This document shows, in pieces, positions 10,071 through 23,155 of a DNA stretch of 64,000 bases. The stretch is from contig PLNR01000006.1 of NCBI GenBank assembly GCA_003141835.1, positions 142,558-206,557 of the forward strand, read 5' to 3'. This DNA is from Candidatus Omnitrophota bacterium (lineage in GTDB: Bacteria; Omnitrophota; Gorgyraeia; Pluralincolimonadales; Pluralincolimonadaceae). Numbering within the stretch: position 1 is the first letter of the stretch; every line of letters begins with the position of its first letter. Position numbers and translations under genes: made by a program. The notes beneath the pieces were generated by a model, which did no database searches, had not been told where the DNA came from, and was given only the letters and a program-made list of their open reading frames with translations.

Positions 10071-10421
10071 TCACCTCCCCCATGCTATACCGGTGCAAAC
10101 AAAATCACGCAATCTTATATTCTCTTTTACAGGCACAGCCTCAAGTTTAATAGTAAAACCGACATAACGCAAGACCTTTTCCAGCGTCTCCATACTGCTG
10201 AATTCACCATTCTCGATCTTCGATATATGTTGTTGGGTAACACTGATCTTCTTCGCCAGTTGTCCCTGCGTGAGTTTGTGGTCGATGCGGTAGCGGATGA
10301 TGGGTATAACAATCTTTAATTTTTGCTGGCTTATCTCCCACCGCTTCCTGAAATCCGGATTTTTCTTCAGCTCCTCGATATGCTCATTAACACTCATTCC
10401 TAAATGAATATTTCTTTTCAT
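10071..10421 (-). CDS. HTH XRE-family antitoxin (HigA-like)
   Basis: LTQGQLAKKISVTQQHISKIENGE helix-turn-helix. Overlaps the upstream toxin gene by 4 nt. Confidence 0.65.
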   Translation of the reverse strand: MKRNIHLGMSVNEHIEELKKNPDFRKRWEISQQKLKIVIPIIRYRIDHKLTQGQLAKKISVTQQHISKIENGEFSSMETLEKVLRYVGFTIKLEAVPVKENIRLRDFVCTGIAWGR

Positions 10422-10816
10422 ATTCCCTCCCTTTGGCTACTAATAGATATCTTACGTCTTTGTCTGGCCAATGAAATTTCTTTAAGTGGCATTTTTGCGC
10501 TCTTCTTGACAAACGCGTTTGTCATAATGGCTCTGTTCTCCCAAAAGAAATATAATATTCTGATTGTGCCAGCTTCGCTTTGAAATCTTAATTCGAATAT
10601 ATCATCGCCGATATATTTTGAATACGGTTGTTTTAACTCCCTTCCTAATTCTTCGAGCAATCTTTGAATATAAGCAAATTTATCCTGTGTTTTTGATTCA
10701 AACGACTCTATGAATTCCTTTACCGGCATCCTTCCTGAACTTAAACTGTAATAGAAACAGTTAAATCTTCCCACTCTCGCCTCCTTAACTTTACAACCAT
10801 TTAGTTGTATTGTCAA
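10418..10816 (-). CDS. RelE/ParE-superfamily toxin (HigB / Gp49-like). True start possibly the internal Met (MPVKEF...).
   Basis: IFELRFQSEAGTIRILYFFWENRAIMTNAFVKKSAKMPLKEISLARQR matches addiction-module killer proteins. It sits upstream of the XRE antitoxin. Confidence 0.6.
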   Translation of the reverse strand: MTIQLNGCKVKEARVGRFNCFYYSLSSGRMPVKEFIESFESKTQDKFAYIQRLLEELGRELKQPYSKYIGDDIFELRFQSEAGTIRILYFFWENRAIMTNAFVKKSAKMPLKEISLARQRRKISISSQREGI

Positions 10817-10908: not shown

Positions 10909-12120
10909 CTAAACTTGGTATTCTTCGCCGTCAGTTAGGATTTTGACGTTCTGGAATAGTTTGGGATATCTCTCGGCTTCAAAGGTATGGATGGGGATAA
11001 GGACGCGGGGATTAAGGGCCTTGGCGAAGGCCTGGAGGTCCTCGATGATAGCGTGGCCGCTGGTATGTACCGGCTCGATTATCAGACCCTCGCGCTCACA
11101 ATATGCTTTGAATTCATCGGTCAGATATCCCTGCCACATCGAATAAATTATCTTGGCGCCGCGCGCGCCATCGAGTTCCTTCACCGCGATCGGGAAAAAG
11201 GAATTATCGCGCGCCAGCATAAGTATCCTGTTTTTCATGCGGGCGATCTCGAATAGATCGATCTTTCGCTTGTTATAGACAAAAAGCAAATCCCTGTACC
11301 CGGCGCTTTCTAAACATTTGGCATGGTACCCAAGGAATTTTACCCTGATATTCTTCCAATTAAACTGCGGTATATTTTTAGACACCTTTCTCAGCTTATC
11401 CAATATAAACGCGGTATAAAGGTCTATCACGAATACCGAATCCGTCTTCAAGCATGCCCTGTAAGCCGAAACGATCCTGTCGATGTTCTGGGACGAGGCA
11501 AATAGAAAGGTGATCTCCTTCCTCTCTTCCAATATCCGGGCGATCCGCGCCTCGACCTCTTTCTCGTCTTTATACTCCTGCGCGCCCCTGCCGAGCATCG
11601 AGCCCTCCATTATCAGGCAATCAATATCCTTCGGCGGGGCTTCTAACATCATCTTGAATAACGCGCTCTTCCTCCCGTGGCCGCGGAAATCGCCGGAATA
11701 GAATATCCTCTTGCCTTCGCCCTCCACAAGGAAAGTAAGCGCGTCAAACGCGGAATGGTCGACCTGATACGGCGTCACCGTCATGTCCCCAACGACAAAA
11801 GGCTTTTTTGGCTTTACGATGCGCGTGTTTATCTTGCCGGTCTTGTTCGGCGTGAATATATTGGACACCTCTATCAGCTCTTTTGCCCCCTGGCTCATAT
11901 AAACGGGGATATCCGGATGGATGTGGCCCAGCAAGCCATAATGGTCCATGTGGGAATGTGAGATAAGTACGGCATCCGGGAGGATTTTGGGATAGGATGG
12001 CTTTTCGATCTCTTCGTCCAGCGGCTGGCCGAAATCTATCAGGAGCCGCGTTTTATCTGTCTTTAACTCGACGCAGCTACCGCCGATTTCCTGAGTGCCG
12101 CGGTGGATTGTTACTTGCAC
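10909..12120 (-). CDS. MBL-fold metallo-hydrolase (possible nuclease)
   Basis: HSHMDHYG metallo-beta-lactamase motif near the N-terminus, 403 aa. Start overlaps the upstream gene by 1 nt. Confidence 0.65.
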   Translation of the reverse strand: MQVTIHRGTQEIGGSCVELKTDKTRLLIDFGQPLDEEIEKPSYPKILPDAVLISHSHMDHYGLLGHIHPDIPVYMSQGAKELIEVSNIFTPNKTGKINTRIVKPKKPFVVGDMTVTPYQVDHSAFDALTFLVEGEGKRIFYSGDFRGHGRKSALFKMMLEAPPKDIDCLIMEGSMLGRGAQEYKDEKEVEARIARILEERKEITFLFASSQNIDRIVSAYRACLKTDSVFVIDLYTAFILDKLRKVSKNIPQFNWKNIRVKFLGYHAKCLESAGYRDLLFVYNKRKIDLFEIARMKNRILMLARDNSFFPIAVKELDGARGAKIIYSMWQGYLTDEFKAYCEREGLIIEPVHTSGHAIIEDLQAFAKALNPRVLIPIHTFEAERYPKLFQNVKILTDGEEYQV

Positions 12121-12965
12121 TATTTAATCCTGCTAAAATCAATCTCGTTTTTTATATGTAATATTTTTATCTCGGGATGCTTTTTCTTAAGCCCATTTAT
12201 GCTCTGCTCAGCCAAACCTGAATACCCCCCAACGACAACAATTCCCAAAACACCTTCGACAATATCGATCTCCAAACCGTCTGGCAACAGCCCGAGTCCC
12301 CGCTTCTGTAATGCATTCTTTACGTAACACTCCTTATACTGCTGAAAGTTCTTTGTAATACGCTCAATATAGCCGCTAAGTTGCGTAAAGACCTCTTCCT
12401 TCAATTCCAAATTATTTCCCAGCTTAACTTCCAAGACGCAGAACTGATATTTGCCTGCATTATTCCTCTTGAGCGCAAGAAGATCCATCTTAGTAGAGCT
12501 GTCCCGGTCAACAACCTGCCGGTCGATTATTATCAAATCATCTCTGTTAGAATTGTCGGTCAAGATCATTTGCTCGAAAACGATCTCCTCTTGAAACTGA
12601 ACTTCTTTAACCTTTTGTCCCATCAATAATAAATTTCTCGTGCTAAAAAAGGAATGCAATTTCTTATGCCCAACGGTGAATAAATAGTACTCCTTCTCCA
12701 TAGCGTTCTTGAACCGTTTAACCGCAGGGCCCATACCTTCTACAAATTTACGATGGATTCTGATTTCGTACAGATTTTTTGACTTACGGTAGGATATTTT
12801 CCCAAGGCTGTTGCCTTTATAATAAAGATTTAGGTAATCGTCGCGTATCTGCAAACCATACTCAAAACCAGATTGCTTGATCTTATTAATCAAGAAGTCG
12901 AAATCCCTCTTCACGGCCTCGTATGTTTCCTGAGATAGATATCGGCTTATAACTTTATTTTTCAT
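12120..12965 (-). CDS. hypothetical protein with PD-(D/E)XK-like signature (candidate nuclease)
   Basis: 281 aa, AT-rich. MDLLAL...CVLEVK fits a D-x(n)-E-x-K pattern. Unrelated to anything I recognise. Confidence 0.4.
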   Translation of the reverse strand: MKNKVISRYLSQETYEAVKRDFDFLINKIKQSGFEYGLQIRDDYLNLYYKGNSLGKISYRKSKNLYEIRIHRKFVEGMGPAVKRFKNAMEKEYYLFTVGHKKLHSFFSTRNLLLMGQKVKEVQFQEEIVFEQMILTDNSNRDDLIIIDRQVVDRDSSTKMDLLALKRNNAGKYQFCVLEVKLGNNLELKEEVFTQLSGYIERITKNFQQYKECYVKNALQKRGLGLLPDGLEIDIVEGVLGIVVVGGYSGLAEQSINGLKKKHPEIKILHIKNEIDFSRIK

Positions 12966-12992
12966 TTTAGGTTTCCTGCGAACCTTTTATTT

Positions 12993-13053
12993 GGGGACAC
13001 TCTGCAGCCTGTCCCTTTTTGACACGCCCCTATTACCTACTATTACCTATTAC
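12993..13053. repeat. island repeat unit U1 (GGGGACAC...TGTCCCTTTTTGACACGCCCC plus TATTACC tandem)
   Basis: Shares the core GGGGMSKTKTCAAAAAGGGACA (reverse orientation) with U2, U3 and the helicase-gene element. It sits between the Dam-like MTase stop and the 281-aa gene start. Confidence 0.5.
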
Positions 13054-13101
13054 TTCTTCGTGATTTTGCCTTTTTTACGCCCATAAAATAGCAACCTTAG
13101 G

Positions 13102-13989
13102 TTATACAAATAATGTAAAACAATGTTTATTTTTGATTTTGGGTAAGATACAATTCTCGCTGGATATTAATAATTCCTTACCGATGCTAGCTTTATGAAT
13201 AGAATATCTTATTTTAAGATTATTCCGCTGAACGCCTTTGTAAATATTCTTAATAAATGCTATGTTATCATATGAAAGAACCCATTTTAGATCGCTATTT
13301 TCTTTCAAATAATTGCTTAGTCTTTCGTGTTCTTGGGCCTCCATGTAATATTTATATAAATCTCTTCCCTTTTGATAATACGGAGGATCCAAATATATTA
13401 AATAATTTGATTTATCAGGACTTTTTAACGCTAAGTAAGTTTTTAAAAAATCGACTCCATCCTTATTAAATAGCTCAATTTTACTTTTATATTTTGATAT
13501 CAGTTCGATTCTTTTAATTAAATTTATTTTATTAAACCTTGCGTCAATCTTCCATTCGCCATCCTGCTTCATGCCACCTACTGGACCTGACGATAGTATT
13601 CCAGAACGGTTGCAACGATTTAGATAGAAGCTAGCAAACCCAACATCAATATCTGAACCATGTTTTATAAATTCTTTGTCCTTCAATAAATCTCTTTGTA
13701 TTTTCCACTCGCTAATTTTAACAGGTGTAGAAATTACGCGCGCAATAAAACCATCTGTTTGATTTAAAACTGCTTTCCAGAATTTATATATTCGTTCATC
13801 CAAATCGTTAAGTACGATTTTGTCAACGAACCCTTTCGTCAACAAATTTAAAGCTGCGCCAGCTCCTCCAGCAAAAGGTTCAATATACGCTACGTTGACT
13901 AATTCATTGCTTTGGATCACTTTATTTAAATATTTCCACAAAGCTGTTTTTCCGCCGGGGTATCTCAAGGGACTTATATGATTATCCAT
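13102..13989 (-). CDS. DNA adenine methyltransferase, Dam-like (alpha class)
   Basis: EPFAGGAGAALN (motif I) near the N-terminus and YLDPPYY (motif IV, DPPY) in the C-terminal half. AT-rich. Confidence 0.8.
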   Translation of the reverse strand: MDNHISPLRYPGGKTALWKYLNKVIQSNELVNVAYIEPFAGGAGAALNLLTKGFVDKIVLNDLDERIYKFWKAVLNQTDGFIARVISTPVKISEWKIQRDLLKDKEFIKHGSDIDVGFASFYLNRCNRSGILSSGPVGGMKQDGEWKIDARFNKINLIKRIELISKYKSKIELFNKDGVDFLKTYLALKSPDKSNYLIYLDPPYYQKGRDLYKYYMEAQEHERLSNYLKENSDLKWVLSYDNIAFIKNIYKGVQRNNLKIRYSIHKASIGKELLISSENCILPKIKNKHCFTLFV

Positions 13990-15374
13990 TATTCGTTCTT
14001 TTTTAGAACATGTCTCAAATATTCAGATAATTTTTTCCACTTATCTGAAAGCACTGTTCTGTCAGGTATATAACTAGCGTTATGTACGAAAGAGTTCAAA
14101 TCGTCCAATATTGGTTCTTTTCCTTTAAAATCGACATATTTTTTAAGCGCTTTCTTAATTTGCGGATCCATCGCTATATCATTTTCACTAAGCCAAAGTA
14201 GCATTCCCTTAAGTGAGGGCCACGTATCTGGTAAACTTTTCCCGCTTTTTAACTTAGTTTCATCGCGGTTTTTATATTTTTTTAATTCCCCGCTTCTCTC
14301 CATGTAAATATACGTGCCCAATTCTACTAATAGTCTAAAAGTTACCGCATGGGCATTTGGATATGTTTTAGGGTTGAGCCCGTGCAGTTCTCTAAATATA
14401 TCTTTGATTCGCTCATTATTGATTTCACATATAATCGCATCTGGGATAATCGACTTAAACTGAAGTGTTTTAGGTATTTGGTTTTTTATGGCGGATTTTT
14501 TGAAATCTCCAGGATTTGAAAGATAATCTTCTATTGCATCTGCTGTACTTAAATTTCTTGAATTGACTTCTTTATTGGCAATATCCTCAACAATCTGTTT
14601 TAACTTTATATCAGTCTTTTTCTCATTTTCTATAAACTCAATATTTCCATTATCGTTGTAAGTAACTTTTAGATAATCTTTACCTGGCTTGCTTTGAACA
14701 ACTCTATCTAGGGTAGTAAATTCAAATTTTTCTTTTTCGTTTCCGTTTTCTAGACTTAATAATTGATCTTTAATTTTTTTCGAAATAGGTAGTTTGTGTG
14801 CTCTCTGAATGAAGTTGTAACTTACAATTAATTTTTTTATTTTATTAGCTTTGACACCAACGGATAGCGATAAATTATTGATTGTTTCTCCATCTCTAAT
14901 ACGCCGGTAATAAAATATGGCTTGATTTATCGGCAGCCACTTTTTAATAGGTATTTCTGTATGTCTACCTGCAATAATATAATCAGCATCTTTCCTGCTT
15001 GGAGCAAGTACCCCGTTTATTTTTTTAATACTACCTGATTTAGCATTTTTTGCAATTGCCTTAAATCGTTTTTGGTACTTATCAGGTGCGATGCTGGGAT
15101 TCAAAAGAAGCTTGCATGCTGCAAGCCGCCTATTTCCTTCTAATACATATAGTTTTCCTTCTATATCACAAACTATTATAACCTCTGTTGGTAAAAAACC
15201 TCTTTCTGCTATTCTTAACGATAGATCTATAATATTCTCATATTTAATTAGCTCTTCAAGAATGTTTTCTTCTGATAACTCTTCTAAATTAGCAAATCGC
15301 GGGTTTTCAGGGTCTAGTAACAAATTCTCTACATCATACTTATCTATCTTCCAATCCGAATAATTTGTTGGCAT
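13989..15374 (-). CDS. ParB N-terminal (ParB/Srx nuclease-like) domain protein, 461 aa
   Basis: LYVLEGNRRLAACKLLLN matches the ParB GxRR box. Long lysine-rich C-terminal region of unknown function. Its stop overlaps the MTase start (13989). Confidence 0.6.
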   Translation of the reverse strand: MPTNYSDWKIDKYDVENLLLDPENPRFANLEELSEENILEELIKYENIIDLSLRIAERGFLPTEVIIVCDIEGKLYVLEGNRRLAACKLLLNPSIAPDKYQKRFKAIAKNAKSGSIKKINGVLAPSRKDADYIIAGRHTEIPIKKWLPINQAIFYYRRIRDGETINNLSLSVGVKANKIKKLIVSYNFIQRAHKLPISKKIKDQLLSLENGNEKEKFEFTTLDRVVQSKPGKDYLKVTYNDNGNIEFIENEKKTDIKLKQIVEDIANKEVNSRNLSTADAIEDYLSNPGDFKKSAIKNQIPKTLQFKSIIPDAIICEINNERIKDIFRELHGLNPKTYPNAHAVTFRLLVELGTYIYMERSGELKKYKNRDETKLKSGKSLPDTWPSLKGMLLWLSENDIAMDPQIKKALKKYVDFKGKEPILDDLNSFVHNASYIPDRTVLSDKWKKLSEYLRHVLKKNE

Positions 15375-15427
15375 TTAAACCTCCTCAAGTAATAAAATAT
15401 CTTCCGCCCTTATTTGAAATTTAACTA

Positions 15428-15500
15428 GGGGGACGCATACCTTATGACACTGTGCAACCTGTCCCTTTTTGAAGAGTCCTCTATTCTACTTCTATTATTT
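15428..15500. repeat. island repeat unit U2
   Basis: GACACTGTGCAACCTGTCCCTTTTTGAAGAG...CTATTCTACTTCTATTATTT is collinear with U1. Confidence 0.45.
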
Positions 15501-15514
15501 GCTATGGGAACTTC

Positions 15515-15575
15515 GGGGACGTGTCATTTTGGGGCACCCTGCAATCTATTTCTTTTTGACACGTCACTAATATTT
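15515..15575. repeat. island repeat unit U3 (bounded by 9-bp inverted repeat GACGTGTCA / TGACACGTC)
   Basis: GGGGACGTGTCATTTTGGGGCACCCTGCAATCTATTTCTTTTTGACACGTCAC. Confidence 0.45.
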
Positions 15576-15619
15576 TGAATTGATCTGCTCAGAGCTTATC
15601 TAGATTGGAGTATTAGTAA

Positions 15620-16561
15620 TCAAATGCCTTTCAAAAGCTTAGAAAATCCTGCGGTATTAACGAAATAATTGCTCTTATTCTTTTTAAGATATTTATATAT
15701 ATCTTTTTTTGCTTTTGACATCTTATTGTCTGTTGATGCTTCAATTAGTTCGTTAAACATAATTCCATCCAAAAATGCTACATACGAAACATTTTTGTCT
15801 GTGTATTTCAATAAATCCACTATTTCTACAATTGCACCGTATTGCCCTCCACCGCCACCTTTTTTATGTTTATGCTCAACAACATACATATTAGGCCCTT
15901 TTTGAATATAACAATCTGGCATCTTACCTTGTTTTGATTTACTCCATTCAAATTTAATATTACGTTTGTTACAAATGTCTTTAAAATATTTTTTCTCTCC
16001 TTTATCAGGCAATAAATAAAACGAATCCTTTTTGATATCATCGCTTCTTTTATATCTTTTGAAACCTTCCCGCTCAACAAGCATAATAATCTTATTTGCT
16101 CCTGTTGAGCCCCCTCTTTTATGCGAATAATTGTCAGATAGTACTTGTAAAACAATATTAGAATATCCATGAGATGAATACATCGAATGCCTATCCTTAA
16201 TATATTTAATTAACAATTCCCGTAGTAATTTTTTTCTTTCTTGTTCTTTTTCGGCACGCAGTACAGAATATGGCATATCCCATACCATTAAATATTGCGA
16301 GAATGCCGTATAATTCATATGATGTATTTTGAATAATATTGAATCAATCTCCCTGATAATTTCATCATCCTGCTTCTTGGTGAGCTTACCATCCAAAGTA
16401 TGGTACGTTGTTATTAGATCAATTAACCTTTCATTGCTATTAATAATCTTGTTTTTATCTTTTGCGTTTTTCGTTATTACAATAATTTCTTTTTTATTAG
16501 CATCATCAAAAATCTGCTCTCTATTCTTTAACGAGTATTCGAATAAGAGGATGTTGTCCAT
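15620..16561 (-). CDS. hypothetical protein; candidate restriction endonuclease partner of the adjacent MTase
   Basis: 313 aa, AT-rich, no recognisable motifs. Overlaps the upstream NPPY methyltransferase gene by 34 nt. Confidence 0.35.
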   Translation of the reverse strand: MDNILLFEYSLKNREQIFDDANKKEIIVITKNAKDKNKIINSNERLIDLITTYHTLDGKLTKKQDDEIIREIDSILFKIHHMNYTAFSQYLMVWDMPYSVLRAEKEQERKKLLRELLIKYIKDRHSMYSSHGYSNIVLQVLSDNYSHKRGGSTGANKIIMLVEREGFKRYKRSDDIKKDSFYLLPDKGEKKYFKDICNKRNIKFEWSKSKQGKMPDCYIQKGPNMYVVEHKHKKGGGGGQYGAIVEIVDLLKYTDKNVSYVAFLDGIMFNELIEASTDNKMSKAKKDIYKYLKKNKSNYFVNTAGFSKLLKGI

Positions 16562-17613
16562 AATAATTCTTCTCCATAAATATTATTATACGCATTTTCG
16601 AGTATGGCCCTTGCAGTTTCATAATCTAGGCGCCTTCTTCTGCAACCATTTTTCATATTTCCTTTAAAGGGCGACAAAAGCACATCATTCGTTTTGTCTC
16701 TATAATCTGTAAGAATGTTATTGCATTTCTCCAAAAACAATTCTAGCTTATCATGCTTTAATTTATCCAATTTAATTATTGTTATTAGCCTAGAGCTTAT
16801 CTTAATCCCCTTTAAATCATAATCAAGTTCTTCCTTTTTCATGAATTTTATCATGGATTTAGGATTTGTTGTGTCGACCGCTCTTAAGGCAATATTTCCA
16901 CTAGTATCATTAAAAAATATCCTAAGGTATTTTGCGGGCCTTAATCTCAATTTTTCATAATAGTCCAGATTATTTAAATATTTATCATTTTTATACACCT
17001 TGATTTCCGAATATTCTTTTGCTCTGCCATCAAAGCAAAGAACACATACCGGCGTCTCTGTATCATCAAAACAATTTTCTTCTATTATAGTAATCGAATT
17101 TAATCGATATTTATGCTTAAAATTACTATTTATGAAAGTCTCTGGAACAATTGCTACAACGTATTCTTGCGCTTGCAGCATTTTTTCAAGTGCAATTAAA
17201 TATAAATCGCCATATTCAGAACTAATAAAATAATTTTCAGTACTATCATAGATACCTTTTCTTTTAGCACTATAATTACTTAGGTAGGGCGGATTTGTAA
17301 TTATTATGGCATTTTTTCTTGTGGGAATTTTTAATAAACTATCATTCACTGGGAAATTCTTTTTAGAGTCTATGTCCAAACCAAACGCTTTGGTAATTCC
17401 GAAATTATCGGAGAGTTTTAACAAATCGCCGTCTCCAGCATATGGATCATAAATCTCACTACAACCGCTGGATATCACGAATTCTTTAATATGAGTTTTT
17501 AGCCATTTATCTTTTTTAGTAAAATATTGTCCTAATATTTTTTGGTTCATATAATGCCTCTGACAATATTGCGTTTTTTCGTCTCTAACATGGACTTTTA
17601 TCTCGCTTGTCAT
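16528..17613 (-). CDS. N6-adenine (or N4-cytosine) DNA methyltransferase, gamma-class order (motif I then NPPY)
   Basis: DPYAGDGDLL (SAM-binding) followed about 40 residues later by IIITNPPY. Confidence 0.7.
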   Translation of the reverse strand: MTSEIKVHVRDEKTQYCQRHYMNQKILGQYFTKKDKWLKTHIKEFVISSGCSEIYDPYAGDGDLLKLSDNFGITKAFGLDIDSKKNFPVNDSLLKIPTRKNAIIITNPPYLSNYSAKRKGIYDSTENYFISSEYGDLYLIALEKMLQAQEYVVAIVPETFINSNFKHKYRLNSITIIEENCFDDTETPVCVLCFDGRAKEYSEIKVYKNDKYLNNLDYYEKLRLRPAKYLRIFFNDTSGNIALRAVDTTNPKSMIKFMKKEELDYDLKGIKISSRLITIIKLDKLKHDKLELFLEKCNNILTDYRDKTNDVLLSPFKGNMKNGCRRRRLDYETARAILENAYNNIYGEELLWTTSSYSNTR

Positions 17614-17710: not shown

Positions 17711-17764
17711 TTTTAGAGTTTCCCCTATAACTCCTCACCTTTCATCGGCGTTGCACTCGGGTCC

Positions 17765-17992
17765 CTAATAATTAAAAATATCTTTAATAGCAAAATTATC
17801 TTCCGGCTTTAGCGCGCGAAGGGCATTCAGAATCTTATGTTGGATATTAAGGGTTAATCGCCTTCCCTTGCGCCCCTTTTGCACCATCTTATGCGACAAC
17901 TGCTCAGTGGAAATCTTAACAAGGTCAGAGTTTGAAAAACCTAGCCGCACCATGATCCTGTCAAGCGGCTGGATGCCTAATTCTTCCTTCAT
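17765..17992 (-). CDS. small hypothetical protein (75 aa), basic, possibly DNA-binding
   Basis: Its ATG overlaps the TGA of the upstream NYN gene (ATGA). Flanked by a roughly 30-bp direct repeat. Confidence 0.35.
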   Translation of the reverse strand: MKEELGIQPLDRIMVRLGFSNSDLVKISTEQLSHKMVQKGRKGRRLTLNIQHKILNALRALKPEDNFAIKDIFNY

Positions 17993-18360
17993 ATTTTACT
18001 CCAAAACTCCTCGCATTTCATCGGCGTTGCACGCGCATCCTTCGCATAAAAATACAGCGAGCGGTCGGAGGAGACGACACGCAGGTTGCGGCGCTGGCGC
18101 GGCGGGATCTGGTCGATGTGTTTCTTTATGTAAGAGTCGGCGTTCCGGGCCGCGACGATATGCAGTTTCGCCGTGCTCCTGTTCGGTATATCGAGATATT
18201 CATTCTTGCTGTCGAATACAAGGGTGATGGGGTCGGCGTGGGTCTCCTGGAACTTCTCCAGGATAGCGATCAGGTGCATGGCGCCGGCCAGGGCGTCGTC
18301 ATGATCTATCCCTGAGCCTTCGTGGCGGACCATGTTCCAACCGTCTATAAGTATAGGCAT
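17989..18360 (-). CDS. NYN/PIN-like (YacP-like) domain protein
   Basis: N-terminal ILIDGWNMV and acidic residues are typical of YacP/NYN nucleases. Confidence 0.5.
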   Translation of the reverse strand: MPILIDGWNMVRHEGSGIDHDDALAGAMHLIAILEKFQETHADPITLVFDSKNEYLDIPNRSTAKLHIVAARNADSYIKKHIDQIPPRQRRNLRVVSSDRSLYFYAKDARATPMKCEEFWSKI

Positions 18361-18373
18361 GGCTCCCTAGCAC

Positions 18374-19516
18374 CTAAACCTTTTCGTGGCTAAATTGGCG
18401 CAGATAATCACTGTACATAAACTTGCGATTGCGCTCTTTTCCGGTTATTTCATATAATATGTCTGCCTTAACAAACTTTTCTATCAACTGAAGGATATTC
18501 GCTTTAGAGGATATTCCGGTAATCCGCGAGGCAATCCCTGAATCTACTATAGGGGTTGAATATAGTTTGTTTAACAGTTTTAAGGCTGTTGCGGAATTTC
18601 TGCCCATGCCGGAAACCTTCCTGATGTGCTCCTCCCTTAATTTTGTGATCTTTTGGGCAGTTATCACGGCTTCCTCAGAAACTTCGCGTACGCCTACAAG
18701 AAAATATTTTAGCCAATCTTCTATACCTTTATTAAACCTATATCCGTTTAATTTATCGTAATAATTTGTACGGTGTTTTTTAAAATACTCCGAAATATAC
18801 AAAAGTGGCCGGGACAGCACCTGTTCTTTGTAAAGATAAAAAGTAATCAAGAGTCTCCCCATCCTTCCGTTACCGTCAAGGAACGGATGGATGGTTTCAA
18901 ATTGAGCGTGTATAATGCCGGCTTTTATTAAAGGCGGAAGTTTCGTGGTTTCATCGTGCAAGAACTTTTCCAGATCAGACAAAGATTCATGCATTTGGTG
19001 AGCGGGCGGAGGAACAAAAAAAGCTGTTTCTATAGTAGGGCCTCCTATCCAATTTTGGGAAGTCCTGAATTCCCCCGGATTTCTGTGCTGCCCACGCACT
19101 CCTTTAAGCAAGGCGGAATGCATTTCTCTTATCAAACGCCAGGAGAGAGGAAAGGTCTTTAGCCTTTCTATGCCATGATCCATTGCGGTTATGTAGTTTT
19201 TTATCTCATCGACATCCGAAGGGGAATCCTTATCCTTTAGTTTCGCCTCCGCTTTTATGTAATCGATGAATGTCGCCTGAGTACCTTCTATCTGGCTTGA
19301 TAACGCGGCTTCTTTCGTAACGTACATGTAGATAAAGAAATTAACGTCGGGGACAAGCTGGTCTATGGCATTGAGACTACCTATAGCGCGATCTGCCTTT
19401 GAGAGAAGCATGATTAAATTGTCATCCCAGTTTATGAGATGCTCAGGTGGAAATTTTGCCGGTATAAACGCCTTGTAACCTGTAGGTTGCTGTTGATAAA
19501 AACCTATTTTTCCCAT
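18374..19516 (-). CDS. Fic family protein (probable AMPylase) with C-terminal winged-helix
   Basis: Canonical Fic motif HPFLDGNGRMGR within a 380-aa ORF. Confidence 0.85.
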   Translation of the reverse strand: MGKIGFYQQQPTGYKAFIPAKFPPEHLINWDDNLIMLLSKADRAIGSLNAIDQLVPDVNFFIYMYVTKEAALSSQIEGTQATFIDYIKAEAKLKDKDSPSDVDEIKNYITAMDHGIERLKTFPLSWRLIREMHSALLKGVRGQHRNPGEFRTSQNWIGGPTIETAFFVPPPAHQMHESLSDLEKFLHDETTKLPPLIKAGIIHAQFETIHPFLDGNGRMGRLLITFYLYKEQVLSRPLLYISEYFKKHRTNYYDKLNGYRFNKGIEDWLKYFLVGVREVSEEAVITAQKITKLREEHIRKVSGMGRNSATALKLLNKLYSTPIVDSGIASRITGISSKANILQLIEKFVKADILYEITGKERNRKFMYSDYLRQFSHEKV

Positions 19517-19688: not shown

Positions 19689-22600
19689 TTACCCCCAGCA
19701 GATATCGTAAAAATCGCATTTATTGTTGCCCTGGCCGCATTTGCCGGGTTTCTCGTCGATCTCCGGCAGTTTGGCGAAGTCGAGCTTCCTGATGCGGCGG
19801 CTAACGTCCTTTATGAGCGACTCGAGCTCGGCGACCATATCCTCGGTCAGCTCGACCTTCTTCTTGACGAATTCGCCTTCCTTGAGGTCGTGCTTTATGA
19901 CCGTCTCTTTAGCCGGGTCGAGGAAGACGAGCACCCCCTCCTTTACCTTGCGGCCCTGTGATTCCTTCTTGTCCCTGTCGAAGAGGAGTTTATACGCGAT
20001 GAGCTGGCGCAGGTACCCCTCGAACTCATCACTTGATACCGGTATCTTTTTCGCGAGAGAATTATTGATCCCTTTGACATGTCTATCCGGTTCACCCGTT
20101 TTATAATCTATCACACGAACGGCGGCGGTGCCCGCGGGTTCGGTTTTATCATATTTTCCGGTAAATTTCAGGTCGTCATCGAGCATGACCATCAGGTTTT
20201 TCTCGAGGCCGAGCGGCTTTATCGGCGCGCGTGATTCTTCCTTGAACCAGGCCTTGAACGTCTCGACCTGGCGCAGGCAGGCGGTCTTTATCGCCGCTTC
20301 CGGGGCTTCGTGGCTTAATTCCCTGGTGAACGCCTCCTTGAAGAACGCGAAATCCGGGAATTTGCCGGTCTTCATGAATTTATCATAGGTATTTTCCAGC
20401 GCCTTGTGGGTGCAGTTACCGAAGACGAGCGGCTGCTTCTTGCCCGACGGCAGCATCAGGGCGTTATCATAGAGATATTTGCGCGGGCAATTTATATAAT
20501 TGTTGAGCGATGTGGGGTTGAGCGAGATGCCGGCGACGAGGTCTTTCAATATCTTGTCGGTGCCGATGAACGGGTCTTCTGCGTCGGTTATCTCGAGCGC
20601 GGCTTTGAGCAGGTCCTCTTCTTTATTTGCGGAGGCCTCCCCATCGGCCACGCCCGTAAGATACGAGCTCGGGATCGCGCTCTCGGTCGGGCTGGCGGTG
20701 TAGATGAGGTTCGCCTTGGCGCGCGTCGAGGCGACGTAGAACAGGCGCGTCTCGTCGTAATAATCGAGTTGCTTTAAGATATCCTTGTCGGGCGGGATCT
20801 CCTTCGACTTGTAGACCTCGGGCGGGAGCGGGATCGAGACGCCCTGCGGCCGCTTCGGCCAGCGCTTCTTTTCGAGGCAGAACGGGATGAATACCGTGTG
20901 GAATTCGAGGCCTTTCGAGCCGTGGGCCGTGTAGATGCGCACGCCTTCCTGCGTGGCCGTGACGAGCTCGCCCTTCAGGGACATGCCGTGGGCCTTGCGG
21001 GTCTCGAGCTCATCGATGAATTCCTTGAGCGTGATGCCCGGGCGCGCGATGTCGGATTCCTTGACCATGTTGACGAATGACGTTAGCGCGCGCAGGTCGC
21101 GGATGCGCAGGAGATCATTATCATCATATTTATCCAAGATGAACTTCAAAACCCCTGCATCTTTGATAAATTGCATCAAAATTGCATGCACTGGTCTACT
21201 TTCGGCTTCAAAAAGCAAAGCAGAAATCGAAGCTAAATTTGGGGACGTTTCAAAAAGGGACACTTCACCCACTGAAGTATTAGCAGGGGTGAAATGTAAC
21301 CCTTTTTGAAACGTCCCCAAGCGCATTAGCTCGCTGAACATCGAAATCGTCGGGGCTTCGCCCTTCTTGCGCTGGTCATATTTTTTCACCCGGACTTCGG
21401 CGATGAAGCGCAGGACGTCGCTCATCGGGATGTGCATGTAATCGGCGGTCAAAATGCGGTAGAGATAGGCGTCTTTCTGCTCTATATCGATGTCGGGCGT
21501 GTGCGCGAAATAGAGCACGTCGAGCATCTGGCGGACGCGCTTCTCGCCGGCGATGTCCTCCTTGCCGTCGGTTGCGTACGGGATACCGGCGCGCAGGAAA
21601 GTGTCGACTATTTTGAGGATATCGTCGCGCTGGCGCACGAGGACGGCGACTTCATCAAGCGGGACCTCCTCCTTCTTCGCGATCTCCTTTATGCGGCGCG
21701 CGATAAAGAGCAACTCCTCGGTCTCGGTCGTGAATTCGTCATATTCGATGGTCTTTTTCTTGAAATCTGTCTCCGGCGCGAGTTCTTTGGCGTGGACGCG
21801 CTCTTTAACCGGAAGGTTATTTATTATGCGGCCTGCGAGCGAGATTATCTCTTTTGTCGAGCGGTAGTTCTTTTCGAGCGGGATCTCTTTTAATTTCGGA
21901 AATCTCTTCTTTAGTTCGCGGAAATTCGCTACCGACGCCCCCTGGAACCTAAAAATAGATTGGTCGTCGTCCCCTACGCAGCAAATATTCGTGCCGCCTA
22001 GCTCGAATAATAAGTCCATCTGCGCGCCGTTGGTGTCCTGGAACTCATCAACCATGATGTAGGTGTACTGCTTCTGGAGGGCGGATTTGAGCTCCGGTTC
22101 ATTGCGGATCGCCTCGACCGCGAAAAGTATCATATCATCGTAATCGTAGCGGCCCCGGTCATCGAAAAGTGCCTTATTTTTGCCCGCTTTGTACTCTTCA
22201 TACAGCTTATATACGGTGGCGAGGGCCTTGAGACGTTCTATGTGCTTTTCTTCAATGTAGGCGCCGTCAGGCTCGGTTTTTTCTATTATCTCAGCGAACT
22301 GCGCCGGCGAAACACCTTCGCGCTTAAGCTCGGTTATCCGCTGGCTTATCTCGCGCTCAAAAGCGTACGGCGCGCGGAACGGCCGGATCTTATCGATGCC
22401 GTCAGTATTATCCAAAATATATTCGAGGAGCTTTATCTGCTCGATATCGGTTATCTGGACGCGTTCCTGGATGTATTCGGCCGCCTCTTCGGACTCCAAC
22501 ACGACAGAATTCGCGAAACTGTGGAATGTCGCCGTTTCAATATTGTAAGCGGCGGCTCCAAGGAGTTTCACGAGGCGCTCTTTCATCGCCTTCGCGGCGG

Positions 22601-22775
22601 CATTCGTGTATGTTAGGATGAGGATATTCTCGGGGCGGGCCTTCTTTGCCTTAATTATGTTCGCCGCGCGGACGGAAAGCAGCTCGGTCTTGCCTGTTCC
22701 GGGTCCGGCTAGGACTAAAACGGGGCCATCGAGGGTCTCGGCGGCTAATTTTTGCTTGGTATTCAGATTGATCAT
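19689..22775 (-). CDS. UvrD/PcrA-like SF1 helicase fused to a C-terminal PD-(D/E)XK Cas4/AddB-like nuclease with Cys cluster
   Basis: Walker A LAGPGTGKT and helicase motifs in the N-terminal 650 aa. C-terminal segment VIDYKTGEPDR...QLIAYKLL plus Cys residues (NCPRKY...CGQGNNKCDFYDIC). Start taken at MINLN (ATG 22775). The track ORF extends to 22823. Confidence 0.8.
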   Translation of the reverse strand: MINLNTKQKLAAETLDGPVLVLAGPGTGKTELLSVRAANIIKAKKARPENILILTYTNAAAKAMKERLVKLLGAAAYNIETATFHSFANSVVLESEEAAEYIQERVQITDIEQIKLLEYILDNTDGIDKIRPFRAPYAFEREISQRITELKREGVSPAQFAEIIEKTEPDGAYIEEKHIERLKALATVYKLYEEYKAGKNKALFDDRGRYDYDDMILFAVEAIRNEPELKSALQKQYTYIMVDEFQDTNGAQMDLLFELGGTNICCVGDDDQSIFRFQGASVANFRELKKRFPKLKEIPLEKNYRSTKEIISLAGRIINNLPVKERVHAKELAPETDFKKKTIEYDEFTTETEELLFIARRIKEIAKKEEVPLDEVAVLVRQRDDILKIVDTFLRAGIPYATDGKEDIAGEKRVRQMLDVLYFAHTPDIDIEQKDAYLYRILTADYMHIPMSDVLRFIAEVRVKKYDQRKKGEAPTISMFSELMRLGTFQKGLHFTPANTSVGEVSLFETSPNLASISALLFEAESRPVHAILMQFIKDAGVLKFILDKYDDNDLLRIRDLRALTSFVNMVKESDIARPGITLKEFIDELETRKAHGMSLKGELVTATQEGVRIYTAHGSKGLEFHTVFIPFCLEKKRWPKRPQGVSIPLPPEVYKSKEIPPDKDILKQLDYYDETRLFYVASTRAKANLIYTASPTESAIPSSYLTGVADGEASANKEEDLLKAALEITDAEDPFIGTDKILKDLVAGISLNPTSLNNYINCPRKYLYDNALMLPSGKKQPLVFGNCTHKALENTYDKFMKTGKFPDFAFFKEAFTRELSHEAPEAAIKTACLRQVETFKAWFKEESRAPIKPLGLEKNLMVMLDDDLKFTGKYDKTEPAGTAAVRVIDYKTGEPDRHVKGINNSLAKKIPVSSDEFEGYLRQLIAYKLLFDRDKKESQGRKVKEGVLVFLDPAKETVIKHDLKEGEFVKKKVELTEDMVAELESLIKDVSRRIRKLDFAKLPEIDEKPGKCGQGNNKCDFYDICWG
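21241..21319. mobile_element. MITE-like structured element inside the helicase-nuclease CDS (perfect 19-bp terminal inverted repeats GGGGACGTTTCAAAAAGGG / CCCTTTTTGAAACGTCCCC plus nested hairpin)
   Basis: It is embedded in an AT-rich stretch of about 200 bp (21125-21330) within an otherwise GC-rich gene. The reading frame is maintained. Its core is related to the island repeats U1-U3. Confidence 0.45.
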
Positions 22776-22822
22776 ATTTATGCTATAATTGGATGGTATA
22801 ATTATACCCCAAGGAGGACGCA
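22776..22822. promoter_or_regulatory. divergent promoter region (two TATAAT boxes, RBS AAGGAGGA for the plus-strand gene)
   Basis: TATAAT at 22784-22789 and 22797-22802. AAGGAGGA 5 nt upstream of ATG 22823. Confidence 0.35.
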
Positions 22823-23155
22823 ATGAAAACTGCTATTATTATGTTATCTGTTCTCTCTTTTACCCTTTTCGTGAGCCCGGCAACGGTCAAGGCCGAAGGC
22901 ACCAGCGGCACGCTCGCCGCGCAGGTAGATACGGTCACTGTGGCACAGACCGAGGGCGAGGATTCCACCGTTTCAGTTGTAGATGAATCCGGCGTCACGA
23001 TACTCTTTTATGTGACAGCCGCAACCGTCATCTCCGGCCCGATAGGCGAGCCGATAAGCCTCGGCAATATCAACCAGAACGACCCGGTCGAGATAGAATA
23101 CGATAATCTCGAGGGCGGGGTCGGGCTGGCGAAGTCAATAAAACTAACAGAGTAA
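22823..23155 (+). CDS. small secreted protein, paralog 1 of 3 (possible OB-fold periplasmic protein)
   Basis: Signal peptide. Shares the C-terminal pattern of hydrophobic and Gly positions with 25322-25636 and 25662-26000. Confidence 0.5.
   Translation: MKTAIIMLSVLSFTLFVSPATVKAEGTSGTLAAQVDTVTVAQTEGEDSTVSVVDESGVTILFYVTAATVISGPIGEPISLGNINQNDPVEIEYDNLEGGVGLAKSIKLTE

Follow-up and report, generated by a model that had tools for sequence, protein, structure and literature searches.

The two-gene system PD-lambda-5 was recovered from Escherichia coli ECOR7 by functional selection (prototype proteins RCQ13837.1 and RCQ13838.1; Vassallo et al., 2022, PMC9519451), and the supplement of that study labels it 'ParB/HEPN, methyltransferase', with HHpred matches to ParBc for the first protein (A; 96.4%) and to MethyltransfD12 for the second (B; 99.9%). 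The prototype altered the plating or plaque size of nine of 10 phages, the T-even phages most strongly, and it could be cloned only in a host deleted for mrr (PMC9519451), a sign that its methylase is active. PD-lambda-5 is now called routinely in PADLOC and DefenseFinder surveys; in the searchable literature we found no publication on its mechanism. Computational analysis had also catalogued ParB-HEPN fusions (the Saro_3948 type) and operons that combine a MAE_28990-type HEPN gene with a ParB nuclease and a DNA methylase (Anantharaman et al., 2013, PMC3710099). Here we describe a gene pair from Candidatus Omnitrophota bacterium (GenBank assembly GCA_003141835.1, contig PLNR01000006.1) that is very probably a divergent copy of the PD-lambda-5 family. 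It lies in a stretch of 64,000 nucleotides (nt), hereinafter the window, to which all positions below refer.

The gene pair and its family

The pair comprises the following features, in which protein lengths are given in amino acids (aa):

13989..15374, minus strand: gene A of the PD-lambda-5-type pair, coding for a 461-aa protein with a ParB/Srx N-terminal domain, a helix-turn-helix (HTH)/helical region and a HEPN-like domain
13102..13989, minus strand: gene B of the pair, coding for a 295-aa D12-class (Dam family, alpha order) N6-adenine DNA methyltransferase
13987..13991, minus strand: TAATG stop/start overlap leading from A into B
15380..15386, minus strand: Shine-Dalgarno-like GAGGAGG, 5 nt 5' of the gene A start codon, as read from the sequence

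Profile searches connect both genes to PD-lambda-5. No fewer than 23 PADLOC PD-Lambda-5_A profiles matched A (best e-value 7.2e-55); among these, PDLC04014 aligned with residues 14-373 and PDLC04008 placed residues 297-456 on positions 298-447 of its 449. The corresponding PD-Lambda-5_B profile (PDLC04018) matched B with an e-value of 2.3e-106 over positions 1-288 of 291. The pair also has the layout of the family, with A upstream of B on one strand and a ParB plus HEPN architecture, and standard defence-annotation tools would call it PD-lambda-5: the system is a known one, of which this is a new divergent copy. Taken with its surroundings, the pair is very probably a PD-lambda-5-type anti-phage system that was horizontally acquired and now sits in a chromosomal defence island. 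An initial annotation of this DNA, made without database searches, had proposed a modification-linked two-gene defence module rather than a partition locus, a view that the PADLOC family matches and the defence-island setting bear out; its description of the module as uncharacterised no longer holds, as the pair belongs to PD-lambda-5, which was functionally validated in E. coli in 2022. Both open reading frames (ORFs) lie at the coordinates given by that annotation, on the minus strand, and the ATGA overlap it gave at 13989 is in fact a TAATG junction (gaaTAATGgat), where the stop TAA and the start ATG have one base, 13989, in common. Overlaps of the ATGA type are found at two related loci (L085 and L086), and the spacing from A stop to B start at related loci is about -17 to +41 nt. 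The guanine-cytosine (GC) content of the A-B pair is 32%, versus 52% for the window outside 10-19.6 kb.

An exhaustive profile search for the A family, counted as representatives of 50%-identity clusters, returned 7,807 representatives at e-values of up to 1e-3 and 2,370 at up to 1e-30; the nearest database relatives of the window A are 56-60% identical to it. A genomic scan limited to one genome per species yielded 564 relatives of A, of which we examined the best 80. Where the A ORF was at least 400 aa long, 63 of 64 loci had a DPPY-bearing D12 methyltransferase as the next gene downstream, in the same orientation, and the remaining locus with a full-length A has a methylase nearby on the opposite strand. 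These partner methyltransferases are 36-49% identical to the window B. The A-B loci are distributed across Proteobacteria, Acidobacteriota, Planctomycetota, Bacteroidota, Actinobacteria, Firmicutes, Chloroflexi, and one Thermoplasmata archaeon; genomic relatives with a ParB-N domain but only about 360-378 aa long were also seen, and these come without the methylase. In the temperate Marinobacter phage AS1 the A-B pair adjoins the integrase. A tblastn search of phage and plasmid collections found no full-length E. coli A; the matches were limited to one phage copy and short ParB relatives of the P2 type.

The nearest A homologs are likewise found in defense contexts: one adjoins a Type ISP restriction-modification (R-M) enzyme, a second is nested in a Type I R-M operon whose gene order is hsdR-hsdS-[A-B]-hsdM, and a third is bordered on one flank by hsdS/hsdR together with AbiJ and on the opposite flank by a ThsB-TIR gene. 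A check on whether the pair recurs in defence islands, which the initial annotation had suggested, gave a positive answer, in that A and B stay together in all but one of the full-length loci and close homologs stand among R-M, abortive infection (Abi), and Thoeris genes. We considered Type I R-M adjacency as a general feature of the family and rejected it, for it is seen with two close homologs, yet only one of the 80 genome loci showed any match. Likewise, a four-gene system taking in the window neighbors of the pair was rejected: the 281-aa, 313-aa, 361-aa, and metallo-beta-lactamase proteins described below have no homologs in any related locus. With no other island gene recurring at related loci, the A-B pair is autonomous.

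Domains, conserved residues, and possible mechanisms

Protein A resolves into three regions, with one motif singled out within the first:

14937..15374, minus strand: ParB/Srx N-terminal domain, aa 1-146, containing the motifs DPxNPR at aa 21-26 and EGNRR at aa 79-83
15105..15146, minus strand: GxRR box VLEGNRRLAACKLL, aa 77-90, from the sequence and its invariance in homologs
14475..14933, minus strand: central HTH/helical region, aa 148-300, with R224
13992..14441, minus strand: C-terminal HEPN-fold domain, aa ~312-461, with R347 and H431

We aligned A with 31 full-length homologs and used the alignment both as a search profile and as input for an AlphaFold2 model (mean predicted local distance difference test score, pLDDT, 89.9). 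The profile matched the Helicobacter pylori ParB protein (4umk, e-value 1.8e-4), with EGNRR opposite GERR, and gave HTH-like matches at residues 150-218. ParB-fold proteins bind cytidine, adenosine or guanosine triphosphate (CTP, ATP or GTP) via the GxRR arginine (PMC12704722). The best structural ParB matches of A are KorB and PadC, both of which are CTP-binding switches and not nucleases, and its viral structure matches are proteins with a ParB/Spo0J N-domain and an HTH. In the same kind of comparison the C-terminal domain resembles HEPN folds, not ParB C-terminal dimerization domains. Domains of the PD-(D/E)xK, HNH, GIY-YIG, and PLD types are absent from A; the ParB/Srx fold is itself sometimes a DNase. 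The GxRR box had been recognized in the initial annotation, and we find it at residues 77-90 as listed. The region that follows was there called Lys-rich and devoid of recognizable motifs. It is Lys-rich (13.6% lysine over residues 131-461), largely because of the 32% GC content; motifs can nevertheless be discerned, as HTH/helical elements at about 148-300 and the HEPN fold at about 312-461.

Conservation was assessed over 131 representatives of the A family with mutual identity of at most 50%. Residues G80, R82, R83, H138, and W146 are identical in all 131, whereas N81, R224, R347, and H431 are kept in 130 of them, and N24 and R26 are kept in every representative that has residues at those positions. 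The HEPN domain of the family shows the motif [LMFI]-[NDH]-x3-H431-N, and R347 lies in a separate helix, 84 residues upstream of the motif histidine.

Protein B carries both hallmarks of its class:

13858..13881, minus strand: AdoMet (S-adenosylmethionine)-binding motif I EPFAGGAG, aa 37-44 of B, as read from the sequence
13378..13389, minus strand: catalytic motif IV DPPY, aa 201-204 of B, kept in 64 of 64 partner methyltransferases

Motif I thus precedes motif IV, as expected of the alpha-class DPPY enzyme that had been predicted for this ORF, and B matches Pfam MethyltransfD12 (PF02086, e-value 4.8e-21) and the adenine methyltransferase of PDB entry 7m6b (e-value 4.5e-12). Judged by these motifs and matches, B is apparently an active Dam-family N6-adenine DNA methyltransferase.

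The likeliest mechanism, which we put forward tentatively and short of conviction, is that self DNA carries a methyl mark and that A joins a ParB/HTH sensor to a HEPN nuclease of non-canonical type. B would methylate a specific adenine motif on the host DNA and so provide a self mark; A, via its HTH and a nucleoside triphosphate (NTP)-gated ParB domain, would engage DNA without the mark, such as that of an incoming phage. Engagement would then switch on an effector, either the HEPN-like domain (most likely by RNA cutting) or a ParB-fold DNase, or both, and phage development would be halted. The A-then-B order with overlapping codons would tie the synthesis of B to that of A, such that the effector is never made without its protective methylase. 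Here we infer the substrate sensed, the substrate cut, and the role of the nucleotide, over and above the family membership, folds, conserved residues, and A-B synteny that we observe.

A more specific form of this proposal, for which we hold out only modest hope, is that A is a nucleotide-gated ParB clamp that senses missing N6-methyladenine (m6A) and triggers a non-canonical HEPN nuclease built from R347 and H431 on different helices, so that DNA would be sensed and RNA cut. If true, A would be a new kind of restriction effector that makes the self/non-self decision on DNA and cuts in RNA, and the 461-aa window copy, which is among the shorter full-length members, would be a handy minimal version.

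Several observations weigh against reading the pair as a PD-lambda-5-type defense system with such an effector. Phage protection is known for the E. coli prototype only, the window copy being known from its sequence alone, and the link between the two runs through the PADLOC profiles and their common architecture, not through a direct alignment. The TIGR00571 dam score of B, 73 bits, is under the Dam equivalog cut-off of 114.85. Neither ParB nor HEPN was detected in A by Pfam or NCBIfam, and the profile of its C-terminal region retrieved no HEPN protein from PDB, only spurious coiled-coil matches; Pfam scans of all family members detected no HEPN either. The arginine of the canonical HEPN Rx4-6H motif is absent, the fifth position before H431 never being R in the 131 representatives. 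Consequently, RNase activity of A is putative, and the HEPN assignment of its C-terminus is made on the predicted fold alone. Finally, the T-even phages, on which the prototype has its strongest effect, have heavily modified DNA, and this makes a simple rule that unmethylated means foreign awkward. The absent HEPN arginine and the strength of the prototype against T-even phages are the chief points left unexplained.

The absent arginine is also one of the points in favor of a plain Type II-like R-M system, in which the ParB/Srx domain of A would be an endonuclease acting on DNA unmethylated at the B site and the HEPN-like domain would be structural or regulatory. The methyltransferase is the constant partner of A, and ParB is one of the four R-M-type endoDNase folds found fused to HEPN (Anantharaman et al., 2013, PMC3710099). 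However, three residues of the HEPN-like domain (R347, H431, and E329) equal the ParB box in invariance, which argues for chemistry or ligand binding in that domain; the prototype is strongest on T-even phages, which resist most classical restriction enzymes; and the closest structural counterparts of the ParB domain, KorB and PadC, are CTP switches. We regard this explanation as possible but rather doubtful.

The Type I R-M operons in or beside which the two closest homologs lie bring to mind another arrangement, a PrrC-like guard or toxin-antitoxin device. The latent HEPN toxin of A would be restrained by B, through contact or activity, and freed once the methylase is blocked or overwhelmed by a phage; the outcome would be abortive infection instead of a distinction of self from foreign DNA. 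HEPN genes inside R-M operons are a recurrent Abi theme (PrrC/EcoprrI; PMC3710099), and translational coupling fixes the A:B ratio. Against this, the Type I R-M match occurs at a single one of the 80 genome loci, and the scheme leaves the HTH and the invariant NTP pocket of ParB without a function; we consider it unlikely.

What remains of value in the window pair is thus mechanistic. PD-lambda-5 is widespread (its clusters at 50% identity number in the thousands) and acts with a broad spectrum in E. coli, and a moderate mechanistic interest persists because no mechanism has been published. Experiments could take hold of the ParB NTP-pocket residues N24, R26, G80-R83, H138, and W146, of the R347/H431 pair, and of the near-absolute A-B coupling.

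The defense island and the flanking repeats

The pair is part of a defense island of 32% GC content at about 10-19.5 kb of the window, in a chromosomal region that is otherwise housekeeping; the genes further out are those of an anaerobe, such as [FeFe] hydrogenase, Mg-ATPase, and HemW. The island neighbors of the pair are all on the minus strand:

18374-19516, minus strand: SoFic-type Fic protein (PADLOC e-value 2.3e-117)
17989-18360, minus strand: YacP-like NYN nuclease gene, with a 75-aa ORF beside it
15620-17613, minus strand: Eco57I-like NPPY N6-adenine methylase (361 aa; 340 aa from the NCBI start) overlapping a 313-aa ORF
10909-12965, minus strand: 281-aa ORF and 403-aa metallo-beta-lactamase/RMMBL-fold protein, with a 1-base overlap
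10071-10816, minus strand: Gp49/HigB toxin and HTH antitoxin pair

Next to the island lies a further gene of note:

19689..22823, minus strand: 1,044-aa UvrD/PcrA-like helicase with a C-terminal RecB/Cas4-like nuclease

The Eco57I-like methylase and the overlapping 313-aa ORF, whose product has no match in Pfam, NCBIfam, PADLOC, or PHROG, are probably a Type II R-M pair. In the 281-aa ORF a PD-(D/E)xK-like D...EVK signature can be seen by eye, and only weak PADLOC matches were obtained (PDC-S18, 1.4e-4); the 281-aa/403-aa operon as a whole has no strong match to known defense systems and is possibly more novel than the A-B pair. A 53-nt direct repeat with 77% identity (17712-17764 and 17988-18040) brackets the 75-aa ORF at the boundary between high and low GC content in the island, and the YacP-type NYN gene extends with its 3' end into one of the copies. 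The repeat may be the scar of an insertion or duplication.

The A-B pair is flanked by three copies of a repeat, of which two are upstream and one is downstream:

15505..15600, minus strand: repeat Ua, an almost complete ~60-nt two-tier hairpin
15415..15511, minus strand: repeat Ub, degenerate copy of the ~60-nt hairpin
12968..13062, minus strand: repeat Uc, located between B and the operon after it, a copy whose 3' arm is degenerate

The copies are recovered by nhmmer with e-values of 1e-21 to 6e-19, and a pattern for their 21-nt core has three matches against 0.03 expected. The hairpin consensus reads GGGGACGTGTCA-AAAAG-GGGACA-[variable loop]-TGTCCC-AAAGT-GACACGTCCCC, in which an internal loop rich in A lies between an outer stem of 9-12 bp (GGGGACGTGTCA/TGACACGTCCCC) and an inner stem of 6 bp (GGGACA/TGTCCC) with the variable loop; it shows almost no covariation. 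At least 20 more copies were found in metagenome contigs (including L134, L130, L140, and L179), nearly always intergenic and in the same orientation as the flanking genes, which include those for RsmE, Memo/AMMECR1, hemerythrin, and DUF488. With copies standing beside such housekeeping genes elsewhere, the repeats are neither part of the system nor evidence of a cassette. They are a REP (repetitive extragenic palindromic)-like intergenic element of the host lineage, outside the defense module, and the hairpin family may be a dispersed element that has so far gone undescribed. The flanking copies noticed in the initial annotation are therefore real, all three of them, while their use there as evidence for the module falls away, since they belong to a dispersed host family.

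Three other identities for the repeats were tried and rejected. As integron attC sites, which the two-tier hairpin, variable loop, and common orientation might suggest, they lack AAC/GTT boxes, and their copies elsewhere flank housekeeping genes; as a structured or known RNA, they have no Rfam match at an e-value of up to 1, and their single-copy folds do no better than those of shuffled sequences (z of -1.4 to +1.1); as promoters or terminators, they score at chance level in consensus scans. A related observation concerns an 85-nt near-perfect palindrome of the hairpin family, GGGGACGTTTCAAAAAGGG...CCCTTTTTGAAACGTCCCC, which lies at 21236-21320 inside the uninterrupted 1,044-aa helicase ORF and may have been inserted in frame, as the Rickettsia palindromic elements are.

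These surroundings bear on whether A might instead be a plasmid- or phage-type ParB that serves in partition or regulates a mobile element epigenetically, in which case the methylase would be an orphan and there would be no role in defense. Its N-domain and HTH are laid out as in ParB, KorB, and Spo0J, copies occur in temperate phages, and repeats flank the genes. The window has no ParA, though: none is present among the neighbors, and no KGGxGK[ST]-type Walker A motif exists in any frame of the 64 kb, in agreement with the absence of parA reported earlier. Moreover, the C-terminus is HEPN-like instead of a ParB dimerization domain, the flanking repeats are the host hairpin family and not a locus-specific parS, the surrounding genes are chromosomal (hydrogenase, Mg-ATPase, and HemW), and the family prototype has a defense phenotype. 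A standard plasmid ParB with a parS cassette, the alternative named in the initial annotation, is not what the locus holds, for ParA, parS, and the dimerization domain are all missing. We accordingly consider a role in partition highly improbable and retain the PD-lambda-5 reading.

Comparison with known systems

PD-lambda-5 of ECOR7 is the closest described counterpart of the window pair: A precedes B, a ParB-N domain is combined with a HEPN-like C-terminus, B is of the D12 class, and the genes reside in mobile or defense islands. The ECOR7 A is the longer protein, in that HHpred matches reach its residue 498 versus the 461 aa of the window A, and the window pair differs in setting, its genes having 32% GC in an uncultured anaerobe of about 52% GC.

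The Saro_3948 and MAE_28990 types similarly bring together a ParB/Srx fold, a HEPN domain, and a DNA methylase, and were read as R-M-linked two-pronged defense. In the MAE_28990 type, however, HEPN is a separate gene, and the Saro_3948 clade was described as 'mostly active' whereas the PD-lambda-5 A family is without the Rx4-6H arginine; both types have been defined by computation only. In PrrC-EcoprrI and other HEPN Abi genes, as in the window pair, a HEPN effector is genetically tied to DNA modification. The N-domain of PrrC is nonetheless an ABC-ATPase, and the protein requires a complete Type I R-M system, while the window pair has a ParB/HTH module and its own small Type II-like methylase, with no conserved R-M adjacency.

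Among proteins outside the R-M world, the CTP switches ParB, KorB, and PadC are like the window A in the fold of the N-domain, which has a phosphate-binding GxRR box and an NPR motif resembling box I, and in the HTH that follows. They are set apart by ParA, parS, and the dimerization domain at their C-terminus, in place of which A has a HEPN-like C-terminus and an obligate methyltransferase partner, its nucleotide pocket being a predicted one. A last relative comes from P2-like phages, namely Wphi (L081), Yersinia HQ103 (L084), and E. coli vB_EcoM-12474II (L088), which carry a short ParB-N relative of A (372-401 aa; phrog_3694) at a genome-end hotspot. This protein (e.g., Wphi gp98) has a ParB N-domain 29-34% identical to that of A over residues ~7-193 (phrog_3694, e-value 3.9e-32), but it is shorter, has another C-terminus, and is paired with a downstream 330-369-aa protein instead of a D12 methylase. 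The P2-like ParB-N gene and its 330-369-aa partner are a sister two-gene module to the A-B pair.

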